From: a virus
Lineage: Duplodnaviria > Caudoviricetes
Length of the DNA stretch: 64,000 nt
Virus record (IMG/VR): IMGVR_UViG_3300029305_003084
Strand: one strand, 5' to 3'
This document shows, in pieces, positions 22,876 through 62,619 of the stretch (positions within the stretch are counted from its first letter, which is position 1; each line of letters starts with the position of its first letter). The translations under genes and the position numbers were made by a program. Below the pieces are notes generated by a model that saw only the letters and a program-made list of their open reading frames with translations, did not search any database and had not been told where the DNA came from.

Positions 22876-25800
22876 TCATAATTTTTCTTTAAAGAATGGA
22901 TCAACAAAAGAGGTTCCAGTCTTACGGAATGTTAGAGGAGATAGTAACTGTCTTCCTAAGAATTGGAAAGATAGACCAATTAATACAGACGGGTGTTTCT
23001 CTAATGCACCACTTACTGTTAACATCTGTGTATCCTGTAATGCACTATATTTAGTAAAATCAGGTCGTTCTAATACATCAGAAATAGAACGAATTAAAGG
23101 TGTTAGTAGTACTTCTGCATGAACACTCATAATATCAATACTAGACTCAATCATTAGATCCATCATAGATTGTACTAAATCATTGACAGTTTCAATACCT
23201 AATTTCCTACGCCCTTCTCTAGTGTCAAGTAAGCCCATGATGTCATATAATGGTCTAGTTAATTCTCTATTTTCAATCTCAATTAAGAATAGTCTACTTT
23301 CATCTTCAATATCATTGAAATTAATTTCATAAATTTCAGGATCACCTTTAGGATGTTTCATTAGTTTCTTTAATTCAGGTGTAATGTAAAATTCTTTCAT
23401 AGATTTTTCATTCATTTCCATGATCTCACCAGTATTATTATCTATAACATGGAACATTGTGACGAAAGAATTTAATTCACCTTCATTTAATTCACTCATA
23501 GTAATGATATTATCTTTAAAGATTAACAGAGCGTAATTATCATCATCACTATCTAACATATTTAAAGTAATTTCATTTGCATTAAGAGAAAAGAATTTAC
23601 TGAATTTTTCACTAAATTCAATTTTCTCAGATGTTGTTGTCAGTAGATGTTTTGTTGAGAGGATTCTCTGTGATAAGGGTTCGGTGATCACAGCTCCAGC
23701 AAAAGACCCAATACCAAGACCATAATTGGTATGGTAATTAATTGGACCATAACAACATTCACAAATACCTTTCTTTGATGCACATGTAATAGGCGATTTA
23801 ACTAGAATCTTTTTACCAATAATATGAGTATCAGATTCAGTTAACACTTTATAATTTCTTTCATGTGGTAATTTATACATTCTACCAATCAATCTGTCCA
23901 TATGCTTTTTAGTTTTAATTTCAAGACAAATTGGATGAACTGATCTACAGTGTTTTTTATTTTCTCTTAATCTAATATCAGAGACTAAGAGCATACATCT
24001 TCGGGCAAAGGCTGTTTATATTCACATAAGGTCGTTACTCTTATGCCGTTCTCTTATGAACTGCTACATATTTCTATGTAGACTAGACTATATCTTCATT
24101 TTAGATTTTTCTAAAATGTTTCCCATTTCCACTCACTTGAGTGTACGTCTTTCGACTAGTCGTTGAACGTTCGTTTAAAAATATTTAAAATTTATAATAA
24201 TTTGAAATATCTGTTCGTCTTTCTCTATTTTTAATATTGCGAACATATCTACTACTACATCCAACAATATTTGCAATTTGACTAATTGTTAAATTGTTCT
24301 CCTCTAATAATTTACATATCATATGAATTGAGTCGTTGGAAACTTTATTCATTAATCTTGGAAACTCAAAATTTTTTGAAATATGTGTCCATGTATTACG
24401 ATTATTTATATGATATATAGTATCTTCGGAAATATTTAATATCTCAGATATTTCTTTTATAGATTTATTATTAGATAACATTTCACAACATTTTAATACT
24501 GTCTCGTCATTAATTTTAGCAAAATTACAATTTTCACCAATATTTGATCTATTATCACATAATCCACTATCAAAAGCATGTTTTATATTTTCACTATGAG
24601 TACACCATTCTAAATTATAAACACAATTATTAGTCTTATCGCCATTACAATGATTTACTTCTAAATCATCATATGATAATCCTTTATCTAAATATTTTTT
24701 AGGAATAGGAATAAATGTCATTGCAACCAATCGATGAATTTTACATTTTTTAGTATTATCACCAAGTTTTAAATTAACATACATATATCCTTTTTTATAT
24801 TTACTGATAGATAATGGTTTATTACTTAACATGCTATATATTTCACCGTTAGTAGAGATTATATAATCTGAATACTGTATTCCATTTACATAAAGAGGAC
24901 TTTTCATATAAATATCAATTAGTAACATATTAATATCACTTCCTTTCATTAATATAATATATAATTGAAATATATAAAATAACGATTAGTATTGTGAATT
25001 GTTAAATATATTTTTAAACGCTTCGCTGCGGATTGTCCAATCTTATAATCTTTTTACTATACCTAAGGCATTACCCTTCGCCCTTATCTATATCACTATG
25101 ATAAGTTAGTAATTATAAGCTCTAAGGAGTTTCCCGCAATTAGAGAAAATTCATTATGTCAATATGACATAATGGGCACACAATTTACCAGATTCCATTT
25201 ATCTTCACATAAGGTCGTTACTCTTATGCCGTTCTCTTATGAACTGCTATATGTCACCATATAGATGAGACTATATCTTCATCTCTAATGAGATGCTCCC
25301 CATTTCCACTCACTTGAGTGTACGTCTTTCGACTAGTCGTTGAACCTTCCTTATATAATATAAGGCTTGGCTGCTGATTGTCTCAATTGAGAGTTCCCAG
25401 CAATTAAAGGAGTTTGCTATATACATCACTGTACATAGGAGCTAAGTTTAAACCTCGACCCATTTTGCTTTTGTTCATAATAAGGGACTTCCTGCCTCCT
25501 AAACTGTCGATGAAATATCCACTAATTGTATTTAAACCACCAACAACTAAATTAGAATTAATAGGAATAGGAATTGTTTCACCAGAAATATTAGGTTTAA
25601 GACCAATATTTCCGGAAAATTCGAACAGTTGCTTATCCTTTATACCTGCACCAACGTTTAGCATAGGCTTAAGATCATTTTCTTCATTTTTCAAAATCTC
25701 AATTTCTTCACGCATTAATTTATGAAGATATTCTTCAATTTCATTAGGTTGCCAACTAGGATCAACCTTCGTATGAAGAATTTCATTGAATCTTTCATTA

Positions 25801-26294
25801 TTATTAGCTACATTAATGAAAGATTCAATACTCATACTCATACCTAAAATAGGATTAAAATCTGTTGAAATTCTAGACAGATTAAAAATAAGGTCATGAA
25901 TAATAATATTTAATTTCTTATTAGAAATCTTATTTCTAAAAGGAATAATAATTTTTTGGTCAATATATGCTTTAATATAACCCGCTGAAATTTTCTTTGG
26001 ATCAATAATAAATGATTCATCAAGATGTTTAACTGAATCCAGTACAATAAGCGGTTCCCAAAAGATAATATTCGTTAAGAAATGTCTTAATTGTAATGTA
26101 TGAATATATCCATCCTCTTTAAATCTAAAATGTACTGGACATTCTCTTAATTCTTTAACTTCAAATCCTTCTCTAAGTTGATTAAATATATGAATAATAA
26201 ATTCTTTATATTTTTTCTCACTTTCCATCTCATTTTCCATTACATAACATGTATTGGTATATGAATCGATAATTTCTTTTACTTCTGGTCTCAT
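22876..26294 (-). CDS. RNA polymerase beta' subunit, C-terminal part (spliced, 3 exons)
   Basis: Exons 26294-25458, 25195-25187, ~24012-22876 give bridge helix KMGESG(A)FARR (cf. KTANSGYLTRR), KSPITC..ICECCYG zinc site and trigger-loop EPLSQRILSTKH. Confidence 0.85.
24013..25186 (-). mobile_element. Group I intron with HNH ORF; apparent terminal A
   Basis: Core AATTGCGGGAAA / AATCCGCAGC / GTTCAACGACTA / AAGATATAGTC; P1 GGT|..GCC; ends GTGAATATAAACA. Confidence 0.85.
24185..24949 (-). CDS. Intron-encoded HNH homing endonuclease
   Basis: IHRLVA..VNHCNGDKTNNCVYNLEW; own promoter motif at ~24953-24970; real start may be the Met at 24928. Confidence 0.9.
   Translation of the reverse strand: MKGSDINMLLIDIYMKSPLYVNGIQYSDYIISTNGEIYSMLSNKPLSISKYKKGYMYVNLKLGDNTKKCKIHRLVAMTFIPIPKKYLDKGLSYDDLEVNHCNGDKTNNCVYNLEWCTHSENIKHAFDSGLCDNRSNIGENCNFAKINDETVLKCCEMLSNNKSIKEISEILNISEDTIYHINNRNTWTHISKNFEFPRLMNKVSNDSIHMICKLLEENNLTISQIANIVGCSSRYVRNIKNRERRTDISNYYKF
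25196..25457 (-). mobile_element. Group I intron (no ORF)
   Basis: Full P/Q/R/S core; follows ATGGGT; ends GTGAAGATAAATG. Confidence 0.88.
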
Positions 26295-29082: not shown

Positions 29083-29120
29083 AAAAAAGACAGATAGAAA
29101 ATTTTCTATCTGTCTTTTTT
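29083..29120. terminator. Bidirectional intrinsic terminator closing array 2
   Basis: AAAAAAGACAGATAGAAA..TTTCTATCTGTCTTTTTT. Confidence 0.8.
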
Positions 29121-29133
29121 TATTTTTCCCGGA

Positions 29134-29376
29134 TGATACTATGAGCGTCCTTGATTCATTTTGATACTGTGATACTCTATGTAAAGTTGATTCATTAGGA
29201 ATCCCTGATACAATTTTTTAGATTGATTCATTGTTGCCACATGATACTATCTGAAGAACTGATTCATTCCTTATCCTAGATACTATAACATGGGTTGATT
29301 CATTTTGACGTTCTGATACTATAATACGAGCTGATTCATTCCATATGTATGATACTATGTGAACACTTGATTATGT
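29134..29376 (-). repeat. Second dual-repeat 36-bp array (14 repeats, 13 unique 9-bp spacers), TIGR-like
   Basis: Strict 9/9/9/9 register: TGATACTAT gagcgtcct TGATTCATT ttgatactg TGATACTCT atgtaaagt TGATTCATT aggaatccc ... Confidence 0.9.
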
Positions 29377-29763
29377 AATATAGAACGGTCTTAAAACTTC
29401 ATCAAAGAATTTCTGAAAATCACCATAATAGCAACTCTCAAAATACATTTCTTCAACAAAGCTTTCATCCAGGCCATATTTCATACAACAAAGACTAATA
29501 TTAGCCTTAGTATCAAAGCAGTAATCATCCTTGCTAACATGGTCCTGATAATAGGTGTTCATGGCATCCTGATTACCATCATCAAGACAACGGACGAAAT
29601 GAGACTTATAGACAGTATCTACCTGATCAAGATTAGAAACCATCCAATAGCCAAGGAAAATTGTGCTTATTATAAACACTATTACACCCAATACCATAAA
29701 CTTACACATGGCATCAGAGCAATACATACAAGGATGCTGATTCTGAGACTTATTCTTTTTCAT
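29371..29763 (-). CDS. Hypothetical membrane-anchored protein immediately upstream of array 2
   Basis: 130 aa, one hydrophobic helix, CxxC; stop codon overlaps first repeat. Confidence 0.65.
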   Translation of the reverse strand: MKKNKSQNQHPCMYCSDAMCKFMVLGVIVFIISTIFLGYWMVSNLDQVDTVYKSHFVRCLDDGNQDAMNTYYQDHVSKDDYCFDTKANISLCCMKYGLDESFVEEMYFESCYYGDFQKFFDEVLRPFYIT

Positions 29764-29770
29764 GATGTTA

Positions 29771-29901
29771 CCTTTCTGGTTTGTGAAGTTTTCCTTCTTC
29801 TTATTAAATAATAATGATTGAGAAGGATCATAGAAAATATTCTAATTATTTCCTTCTTTATTATGATTATAATATATATTTGAAAGTGTTGACTTTACGA
29901 T
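29771..29901 (-). promoter_or_regulatory. Repeated promoter/5' leader cassette, copy 1
   Basis: Near-identical to 54006-54137 in opposite orientation; includes promoter motif 29868-29885, hairpin and RBS. Confidence 0.8.
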
Positions 29902-29947
29902 TAAAAAAATACAGAGGATATTAATCCTCTGTATTTTTAATTATTGA

Positions 29948-30376
29948 TTATTCTTCAACAATAGTTCCAATACATTCTGCGGTTTCCCACTTTTCTCTTT
30001 TAGGAGTATTATAATTATCGAGAATGCCTTTCATTCTCTTATATTCACCCTTTACTCTCTTTCTCTTTTCCTGCTTAGGAGTAACATATCTGGATCTTTC
30101 TGCATCCAGAATAATTCTACCAAATAAACTTCCAGAACCAGTATATTTCACCTGAAACATACCAACAGGAGACTTACCATACTCCCGAAGAATAAAGTCG
30201 GGAATAGCCTGATCCATACTCAGGAAGTCGTTGTGTACGGTATGTAATGCTTTCAATTCAGCATCACGATTATGTCGATAGAAAATATCAACTTGATCAA
30301 CATTTACTCCTTCGGACATCATCCAACAAAGCATGGTGTCAACTGCCTTCAGATTCATCTTTTTTGCTTCAGCCAT
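29948..30376 (-). CDS. Hypothetical protein
   Basis: 142 aa, AAGGAG RBS. Confidence 0.6.
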   Translation of the reverse strand: MAEAKKMNLKAVDTMLCWMMSEGVNVDQVDIFYRHNRDAELKALHTVHNDFLSMDQAIPDFILREYGKSPVGMFQVKYTGSGSLFGRIILDAERSRYVTPKQEKRKRVKGEYKRMKGILDNYNTPKREKWETAECIGTIVEE

Positions 30377-30397
30377 GATAGTTTTCTCCTTTAAAAA

Positions 30398-31006
30398 TTA
30401 ATTATTATGTAATTTAATTTTTGCTAAAGAAATTGCGATGTTATATTCTTTAGCAAAAATATTACTGCCATGATTATTGTTCACAGCGGTTTCAAACTCA
30501 TCAATAGTTCCATTGAAATATCCACAAACAACACCAATATTATCATTGATATTATAAAATGTAGTATAATCATTTCTAGAACCAATAGGTCCAATTACTA
30601 AAATATCAGATATTTTAGTAATATTAGCATTTTCAGATACCCGAGCATTTCCAGATACCCAAACATATCCAGATACCTGAGCATCCCCATATACCTGAGC
30701 ATTTCCAGATACCCAAACATTTCCAGATACCCAAGCATCTCCATATACCTGAGCATTTCCAGATACCCAAGCATTTCCAGATACCCGAGCATTTCCATAT
30801 ACCTGAGCATCCCCATATACCTGAGCATTTCCAGATACCCAACAATCTCCATCATGAGAAAGATTTTCTTCTTTCTCAATATATCCACCAAAATCACCCT
30901 TCGTAACATTCCATCTGGGAATATCATGAAGAGCACGAATTTGATACAGAGTTTTATCGGAAATAGTGATGGTATTGTTAGTCAATTCATATTTTTTGTT
31001 TATCAT
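30398..31006 (-). CDS. Hexapeptide-repeat (left-handed beta-helix) protein
   Basis: Tandem GNA(Q/R/W)V(Y/S) repeats encoded by 18-bp DNA repeats ~30630-30845. Confidence 0.8.
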   Translation of the reverse strand: MINKKYELTNNTITISDKTLYQIRALHDIPRWNVTKGDFGGYIEKEENLSHDGDCWVSGNAQVYGDAQVYGNARVSGNAWVSGNAQVYGDAWVSGNVWVSGNAQVYGDAQVSGYVWVSGNARVSENANITKISDILVIGPIGSRNDYTTFYNINDNIGVVCGYFNGTIDEFETAVNNNHGSNIFAKEYNIAISLAKIKLHNN

Positions 31007-31131
31007 GGTACTAATATATCCTTTCTTTATGTATTTATATTATAATATATATTTATAATCTTTAATTTTACGAAAAAATATAAAGATAGAGAATAGTAAA
31101 TACTATTCTCTATCTTTATTATATATAAAAA

Positions 31132-53870: not shown

Positions 53871-54005
53871 GATATCATTTTCCTTTCATAATATTTAAGA
53901 ACATTTATTCTTTTCGTTCTTACGTATATAATATATAATTAAAAACTCTTTTGAATTTTTATATAGTTGTTAGATGTATAATAATTTTCTATGTTCCCCG
54001 TTAAA

Positions 54006-54137
54006 ATCGTAAAGTCAACACTTTCAAATATATATTATAATCATAATAAAGAAGGAATATTAGAATATTTTCTATGTTCCTTCTCAATCATTATTAACAT
54101 TTAATAAGAAGAAGGAAAACTTCACAAACCAGAAAGG
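54006..54137 (+). promoter_or_regulatory. Repeated promoter/5' leader cassette, copy 2
   Basis: Near-identical to reverse complement of 29771-29901; promoter motif 54022-54039. Confidence 0.8.
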
Positions 54138-54144
54138 AAAAAGT

Positions 54145-61923: not shown

Positions 61924-62619
61924 ATGAAAAAATATGAACTGACTAACGAGACTATGGAATTCCCTGATAACATCATTTTTTATCGTATTCGTGCACTGAG
62001 AGATTTCGGTGATGTTAAGAAGGGTGATCTTGGTGGATATATTGAGAAAGAAGATAATCTTTCTCATGATGGAGATTGTTGGGTATATGGAAATGCTACG
62101 GTAATTGGAGATGCTAGAGTATATGAAAATGCTCGAATATTTGGAAATGCTGATATACATGGAAATGCTCGAGTATATGGAAATGCTCAGGTACACGGAT
62201 ATACCGATGTATTTGGAAATGCTCGAGTATATGGAAATGCCGAAGTATATGGAGATGCTGATGTATATGGAGATGCTGATGTATATGGAGATGCTTTAGT
62301 ATGTGGATGTGCTGATGTATCTGGAAATGCTCGAGTATGTGGAAATGCTCAGGTATTTGATGATATTTTAGTATCTGGAAATGATCGTATATTTAAAACT
62401 AATCAGGATATTCAAAGAGAACAAAACTCTTTTCGCGACAAAATACAGGGGGTAAATAAAAAGGCTAATGAGTTAGAAAAACTCAAAAAAGACCAAGATA
62501 AACTTAAAGAGTTATTAGAATCTTCTCTGGTATATATGCGTACAAAAGAAGTTGATGCTGAGTATGTAAAACTACGAGATAAACTCGATCGATGTTTCCA
62601 GATCTTAGCTGAAGAATAA
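61924..62619 (+). CDS. Hexapeptide-repeat (beta-helix) protein with C-terminal coiled coil, paralog of 30398-31006
   Basis: KKYELT..IRALRDF..GGYIEKEDNLSHDGDCWV followed by GNA.VY repeats. Confidence 0.8.
   Translation: MKKYELTNETMEFPDNIIFYRIRALRDFGDVKKGDLGGYIEKEDNLSHDGDCWVYGNATVIGDARVYENARIFGNADIHGNARVYGNAQVHGYTDVFGNARVYGNAEVYGDADVYGDADVYGDALVCGCADVSGNARVCGNAQVFDDILVSGNDRIFKTNQDIQREQNSFRDKIQGVNKKANELEKLKKDQDKLKELLESSLVYMRTKEVDAEYVKLRDKLDRCFQILAEE

Follow-up and report, generated by a model that had tools for sequence, protein, structure and literature searches.

Array 2 of this phage is a dual-repeat TIGR array of seven units that belongs to the published TIGR-TasA family, and we consider it likely (probability of about 0.8) that it is a working array served in trans by the phage's own TasA. 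The sequence analyzed, referred to as the window, is a stretch of 64,000 nucleotides that corresponds to the minus strand of positions 23185-87184 in a 247,146-bp virus record rated 100% complete. TIGR-Tas is an RNA-guided DNA-binding system described in 2025, whose arrays are defined by alternating edge and loop repeats of 8-12 nt with two 9-nt spacers per 36-nt unit, open on an edge that is 5'-truncated, close on a 3'-truncated one followed by a rho-independent terminator, and are accompanied by a Nop-domain Tas protein (PMC12045711). Array 2 has two distinct short repeats and variable 9-nt spacers, two per 36-nt unit; it has the truncated ends and the terminator; and a Tas protein is encoded in the same genome, though its gene adjoins array 4, which carries the same repeats, and not array 2. 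Within the TIGR-TasA family, array 2 is unusual in its distance from tas, in its place on the predicted tail of an mRNA and in the motifs that flank its spacers.

Architecture of array 2

Array 2 lies at window positions 29121-29376 on the minus strand, and each of its seven 36-nt units consists of an edge repeat AAUGAAUCA, spacer A, a loop repeat AUAGUAUCA and spacer B. On the plus strand, TGATTCATT occurs six times in exact 36-bp steps (at 29152, 29188, 29224, 29260, 29296 and 29332), and TGATACWAT or a one-mismatch variant of it is found at 29134, 29170, 29206, 29242, 29278, 29314 and 29350, with a degenerate copy at 29368. The repeat positions from 29134 to 29368 bear out the preliminary description, which had counted 14 repeats in exact 18-bp register separated by 13 spacers of 9 bp; beyond these, one more spacer, the 14th (29125-29133), and a 15th repeat cut short (29121-29124) merge into the terminator. 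The two repeats in their 18-bp register stand as described, but the unit is not 18 nt long: it is 36 nt and holds two spacers. Likewise, the repeats themselves had been recognized correctly but were written on the strand opposite to the RNA strand, which is the minus strand of the window. Copies of TGATTCATT number 36 in the window versus 4.0 ± 2.1 in shuffled sequences, nearly all of them within two arrays.

All six internal edges match AAUGAAUCA exactly, and four of the loops match AUAGUAUCA exactly while three carry one change. The first edge (29368-29376), ACAUAAUCA, is 5'-truncated and contains the stop codon of the preceding 130-aa ORF (ORF130), and the last edge (29121-29124), AAUA, is 3'-truncated and runs into the hairpin at 29083-29120, so that the extent proposed earlier, from the stop codon to a terminator, is correct. 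By the phase rule of TIGRFinder, the core of an edge has complementary terminal bases and the core of a loop does not; here the edge core UGAA ends in U and A and the loop core AGUA in A and A. The motifs flanking the spacers are UCA and either AA (edge) or AU (loop), in contrast to the canonical CCA (box C) ahead of each spacer and UG (box D) behind it in the published TIGR-TasA arrays, and at the position of the C-G box pair the edge could form A-U and the loop gives U-U. TIGR box motifs can diverge (PMC12045711).

The 14 spacers are all unique, all 9 nt long and free of positional base bias, and their GC content is 0.43 compared with 0.29 for the genome (p 5e-4). None of them occurs in array 1, as had been noted, and none has a match at ≤1 mismatch among the spacers of 12 arrays in four genomes. 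The array 2 RNA folds no better than shuffled sequences (z +0.27), and dual-repeat tigRNAs would be expected to lack a fold of their own. Most of the loop repeat next to it reappears in spacer B of unit 6 (29161-29169), displaced by one slippage unit; this spacer may be a product of replication slippage and not a real guide, and because of this resemblance not every unit need be a real guide.

Several other identities for array 2 were tried and rejected. A coding remnant, for which spacers conserved among relatives with codon-like substitutions had been named as the sign, does not agree with the absence of ORFs of ≥40 aa from 29121-29370 on both strands or with the spacers, which are unconserved in the sister lineage described below. 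A known RNA family was set aside since a search of the window with Rfam yields three group I introns alone. A CRISPR array was rejected on the 9-nt repeats of two kinds and the 9-nt spacers, and Rfam finds no CRISPR-DR family in the window.

One tas gene and five arrays

The sole tas gene of the genome, at genome positions 208596-210026, encodes a 477-aa protein with a Nop domain and adjoins array 4. It lies outside the window, 150 kb from array 2, or 95 kb if the genome is circular. Over the Nop domain, the protein matches TaTasR (9mty_A) with an E-value of 2.3e-15 and TasH (21kl_A) with an E-value of 1.5e-10. Only ~50 residues precede the Nop domain and Pfam finds no nuclease family in the protein, features that identify it, judged from its sequence, as a TasA, the nuclease-free type; a C-terminal extension of ~180 residues sets it apart from the published TasA proteins. 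The alignments made gave no position on the phage TasA for the Tyr/His processing pair of TasH. A trans-acting effector had been postulated for the array, and this single gene, distant from array 2 and next to an array with the same repeats, answers to it. Two small ORFs of 64 and 61 aa with no Pfam match flank tas (positions 3943-4137 and 5596-5781 of contig L043; genome ~208.4-210.3 kb).

A scan of the genome and its relatives for the repeat pattern, which the preliminary description had proposed, located five arrays in the 247-kb genome of this jumbo phage, at ~57.8, 86, 153, 208 and 226 kb, and further arrays in four related complete genomes (G001, G002, G004 and G005). All five complete genomes, this phage (G000) included, have one tas gene each. 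In G000, G001, G002 and G004 this gene adjoins an array built of the same repeats, and in G005 it lies ~12 kb from the arrays. In the four relatives, tas is 36-57% identical over the matched stretches, and each carries two or three arrays with identical repeats, some of them 6-17 kb from tas. Beyond these phages, the edge-N9-loop-N9-edge pattern gave 0 matches in 185,579 species genomes. The preliminary description had read selection on the unit architecture from two loci, and this view is now strengthened: both repeats and the 9-nt spacing persist across five arrays of this genome, in four related genomes and at a sister locus with completely different spacers.

The five arrays differ in their regularity. 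In arrays 2 and 4 every spacer is 9 nt, and array 4 has the same truncated ends as array 2, while arrays 1, 3 and 5 have spacers of 8-11 nt and have lost repeats, which indicates that remote arrays can decay. Spacer GC content is 0.45 in array 4, 0.43 in array 2, 0.39 in array 5 and 0.28-0.29 in arrays 1 and 3, the last being the value of the genome. The higher spacer GC speaks for selection on arrays 2 and 4, or for targets in DNA that is GC-richer than the phage. Array 1 (window 121-1790, minus strand) has the same repeats as array 2 and, as had been described, the same orientation; it extends over ~1.66 kb, with its own promoter box at 1786-1802 and a terminator at ~75-115. Most of array 1 is a tandem segmental duplication of ~700 bp (window 184-890 and 863-1566, 74% identity over 725 nt), and many spacers of the two halves are recognizably paired; such paired blocks imply that TIGR arrays can grow by block duplication followed by divergence. 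A 20-bp hairpin that lacks a U-run is located directly before array 4, and a similar hairpin precedes array 5.

The predicted transcription unit of ORF130 and array 2

ORF130 (29371-29763, minus strand) encodes a small, Cys-rich, putative single-pass membrane protein, and its UAA stop codon (29371-29373) falls inside the first edge repeat. One strongly hydrophobic segment of 19 residues (residues 19-37, mean Kyte-Doolittle 2.48) and eight Cys residues make the designation as a membrane protein, given in the preliminary description, a reasonable one. The protein has no Pfam family, and no relatives of it were found in viral contigs. Upstream of ORF130 are a conserved 5' leader of ~104 nt (29764-29867, minus strand), which is common to about ten promoter cassettes of the genome and is 94% identical to window 54005-54140, and a 17-nt phage promoter box, TTYAAWTATATATTATA (29868-29884, minus strand). 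The box is present in 32 copies in the genome, 29 of which have a same-strand ORF within ~140 nt downstream, and it precedes the tas operon, array 1, a small ORF ahead of array 3, and array 5 as well as ORF130.

Downstream, a bidirectional intrinsic terminator (29083-29120; 17-bp stem, -22.3 kcal/mol, z -8.7) would end both the array 2 transcript and the convergent 379-aa gene, and no terminator was found in a search between ORF130 and array 2. From the placement of the boxes upstream and of the terminators, all arrays therefore run in the order promoter, array, terminator on the AAUGAAUCA strand. The promoter box and the leader of ~100 nt together form a repeated cassette ahead of about ten unrelated small ORFs (window 29764-29884 on the minus strand, 54005-54140, and about eight other places in the genome). 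It may serve as a regulatory 5' UTR common to these genes, or it may be a substrate for recombination by which gene cassettes are moved.

Proposed function of array 2

By analogy with other TasA systems, array 2 would serve as a source of guides for RNA-guided repression. Transcription would start from the promoter box at 29868-29884 and run to the terminator at 29083-29120, so that the ORF130 mRNA would carry the array at its 3' end. The phage's only TasA, encoded 150 kb away, would bind this precursor in trans. The precursor may then be cut within each edge, AAUG|AAUCA, if processing follows that of TaTasR tigRNA1, to give seven 36-nt tigRNAs with a layout of 5+9+9+9+4 nt. Each tigRNA would direct a TasA dimer to an 18-bp DNA site composed of spacer A and the reverse complement of spacer B, and the dimer most likely would block transcription at the target, as shown for other TasA proteins. 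Several features speak against this account. The opening unit has an edge that is truncated on its 5' side and embedded in the mRNA, and the published minimal arrays required full edge repeats for processing (PMC12045711). In the loop repeat, U stands opposite U where a pair would be expected, the target searches given next found no target, unit 6 has the spacer that resembles a slipped loop, and arrays 1, 3 and 5 are irregular.

We searched for targets using the geometry given by tigRNA1 and its target oligos in the supplement of Faure et al., in which the 18-bp target strand reads spacer A and then spacer B in reverse complement. When 18-mers in the two possible arrangements and in two control arrangements were searched at ≤3 mismatches in this phage and three relatives (G000, G001, G002 and G004), matches were no more numerous than for the controls and none was exact, and no targets were found for the units of the sister lineage in the four genomes or for the units of this phage in the loci of five relatives. 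In viral contigs, unit 7 had 0 matches in the correct arrangement and one match in the wrong arrangement, on a contig of 55% GC, and unit 2 had one match. In metagenome contigs, unit 4 had 119 scattered matches; none of these came from the phage's own samples, and no locus was matched by a second unit. The matches in both sets of contigs were at chance level. As a pointer to the host, the SLH-domain lysin has only weak matches (24-48% identity) to Oscillospiraceae, Acutalibacteraceae, Flavonifractor and Fervidobacterium, too little to select genomes in which to look for targets.

Gain of the array and turnover of its spacers

The comparison of orthologous loci, which had been suggested as a way to look for gain or loss of units, newly shows the gain of an array at the ORF130 locus and the complete turnover of its spacers. 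On contigs of eight JGI samples, ORF130 is unchanged and array 2 is 100% identical in all eight. The phage is present in JGI samples 3300018475, 3300018493, 3300018494, 3300022661, 3300022753, 3300023371, 3300024270 and 3300024303. In a sister lineage (L100; three Logan runs, SRR26073958-60), the ORF130 ortholog shows 69% identity and the coding flanks 73-82% nucleotide identity, and an array is found at the same site, where the stop codon is again within the first edge and the end is truncated to AAUGA. The sister array has four units compared with seven here, and no spacer in common. When the spacers of the two lineages are aligned in register, 9/63 bases are shared with the 5' end as anchor and 17/63 with the 3' end as anchor (14-27%), and the best-match scores equal random expectation. 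Among 193 four-fold synonymous sites in three flanking genes, on the other hand, 57% are identical (p 3e-12 and 1e-6 versus the spacers). With the spacers at chance level and the four-fold sites at 57% identity, the differences between the spacers come from replacement and not from drift alone.

In four more distant relatives (G001/L091; proteins P0009, P0012 and P0015), the 379-aa neighbour is 53-69% identical and a convergent gene follows ~45-60 bp past the neighbour gene. In the DNA of four such loci (G001, L091, L115 and L117), no array is present at that junction and there is a terminator only, and the block at window 29121-31131 is missing from G001. Among the relatives compared, the junction behind the 379-aa gene carries an array in the lineages of this phage and L100 only, in agreement with the earlier suggestion that arrays can appear at new loci. 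The most economical reading of these sequences would be that the ORF130 locus acquired its array in the ancestor shared by the two sister lineages. The G001-like relative and this phage are found together in JGI sample 3300024270 (L091, L094). Their TIGR repeats are identical, so that guides from either phage could in principle be taken up by the other's TasA.

We put forward a more extended account with considerable doubt. Array 2 would be a young guide cassette that arose at a terminator-only junction in the ancestor of the sister lineages, with spacers since replaced wholesale faster than synonymous sites change. In addition, the first edge encloses the ORF130 stop codon in both lineages, and with cleavage after edge position 4, as in published work, processing by TasA would sever that codon, which might leave a non-stop mRNA and tie the maturation of guides to the shut-off of the membrane protein. 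If this is true, the wholesale replacement of spacers would imply an unknown way of making or swapping TIGR units.

Alternative explanations

Array 2 could also be an inert orphan in a 3' UTR, a TIGR array by descent whose transcript is unprocessed or whose guides have no targets, and which is decaying like arrays 1, 3 and 5. The irregular spacers and missing repeats of those arrays, the spacer GC of arrays 1 and 3, relaxed to 0.28-0.29, the empty target searches in the phage, its relatives and the contig databases, and the resemblance of one array 2 spacer to a slipped repeat would all be in line with such a fate, and the identity of array 2 over eight samples is uninformative because its flanks are 99.8-100% identical too. 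We nevertheless regard this as unlikely, for decay does not account for 14 spacers of exactly 9 nt and six perfect internal edges, nor for a spacer GC near that of the tas-adjacent array and unlike that of arrays 1 and 3, and the array, its repeats intact, has persisted here from before the divergence of a lineage in which 43% of synonymous sites have changed. Less probable still, array 2 would not be a source of guides but chiefly an RNA element that serves its mRNA or TasA, where, for example, cleavage of the first edge would control ORF130 or the array would be a sponge for its own or a co-infecting TasA. The position of the ORF130 stop within the first edge in both lineages speaks for this, the published cut, after position 4 of the 9-nt edge, would fall inside the stop codon, and related phages share identical repeats, including the G001-like phage in the same sample. 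A regulatory tail, however, would need one edge and not seven complete units with unique spacers; a library of guides would be expected to show just such a full turnover of spacers within an unchanged unit geometry; and the first edge lacks the 5' half that published work found necessary for processing.

The explanation that we find hardest to credit treats the repeats as DNA sites for a DNA-binding protein, as in iterons, centromeres or operator arrays, with the spacers as linkers. Several intergenic loci do carry two constant 9-bp boxes at a set spacing with free linkers between them, which would fit this description, but an 18-bp period does not match the helical repeat of DNA, and spacers that changed faster than synonymous sites are not what neutral linkers would give. 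In addition, every array lies between an upstream promoter box and a downstream terminator on its own strand, half-repeats of a single type form the array ends, like those of TIGR arrays, and tas adjoins an array with these repeats in four genomes and is ~12 kb away in the fifth. We dropped a DNA-binding site array on the tas gene, the polar promoter and terminator layout and the half-repeat ends.

Comparison with known systems

The closest known systems are the dual-repeat TIGR-TasA systems, such as FpTIGR-TasA of Flavonifractor plautii, MbTasA and PlTasA (Faure et al. 2025, PMC12045711; Xu et al. 2026, bioRxiv 10.64898/2026.09.09.750476; bioRxiv 10.64898/2026.08.11.744272). Array 2 shares with them the alternating edges and loops, the two 9-nt spacers per 36-nt unit, the truncated end edges and the terminator, as well as an effector with a Nop domain and no nuclease and its location in a phage. 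Unlike in the published systems, 150 kb separate array 2 from tas (95 kb in a circular genome), five arrays are served by one tas gene, and the array is predicted to be the 3' tail of a protein-coding mRNA with the stop codon within its first edge. Published TIGR catalogues searched ≤10 kb around tas, and the word 'orphan' is absent from both main TIGR-Tas papers. Because remote arrays exist, guide counts per system that were taken from tas-flanking DNA are underestimates. The layout of 5+9+9+9+4 nt is that of the synthetic tigRNA1 of TaTasR (PDB 9mty; Faure et al. 2025), in which a 9-nt edge is cut after position 4, and TaTasR also has an edge core with complementary ends and a related Nop domain. 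TasR differs in that it has an N-terminal RuvC nuclease and cuts DNA, whereas the protein here has no nuclease domain, and the repeats of the two are unrelated.

Resemblances to two other guide systems extend to part of the features. Like orphan CRISPR arrays and phage mini-CRISPR arrays, array 2 would hold guides far from or lacking effector genes with the effector acting in trans, and close relatives differ in spacers while the repeats are fixed. Unlike CRISPR arrays, it has 9-nt repeats of two alternating kinds and not repeats of 25-36 nt, and 9-nt spacers that would act in pairs on both DNA strands, and it lacks cas genes and any known machinery for acquisition. Box C/D guide RNAs of archaea and eukaryotes, including clustered snoRNA arrays, also have a Nop-domain dimer and two short guides flanked by boxes, and are cut into units from polycistronic precursors; they differ in that they guide RNA methylation with fibrillarin and L7Ae and have K-turns, whereas here the target would be DNA and the repeats are minimal.

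The natural targets of TIGR-Tas, the origin of its arrays and the gain of spacers are open questions in both main papers. Array 2 is a pristine array, apparently served from 95-150 kb away and predicted to be co-transcribed with a protein gene, and its junction offers a natural series of no array (distant relatives), four units and seven units, the last two having no common spacer. This series makes the birth and turnover of arrays testable by comparative genomics, in a phage family that is well sampled, with 136 homologue clusters of the neighbouring gene.

Other features of the window

The three group I introns (Rfam RF00028, 93-107 bits) are located at window 9521-9782 and 9864-10108 on the plus strand and 25247-25461 on the minus strand, and the third overlaps the start of an RNA-polymerase-like ORF (25404-26294). 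Two hexapeptide-repeat (beta-solenoid-like) paralogues, at window 30398-31006 (minus strand) and 61924-62619 (plus strand), are encoded by 18-bp DNA tandem repeats, and one sample (L097) carries a copy-number variant of the hexapeptide repeat, indicating that this repeat is unstable in nature.
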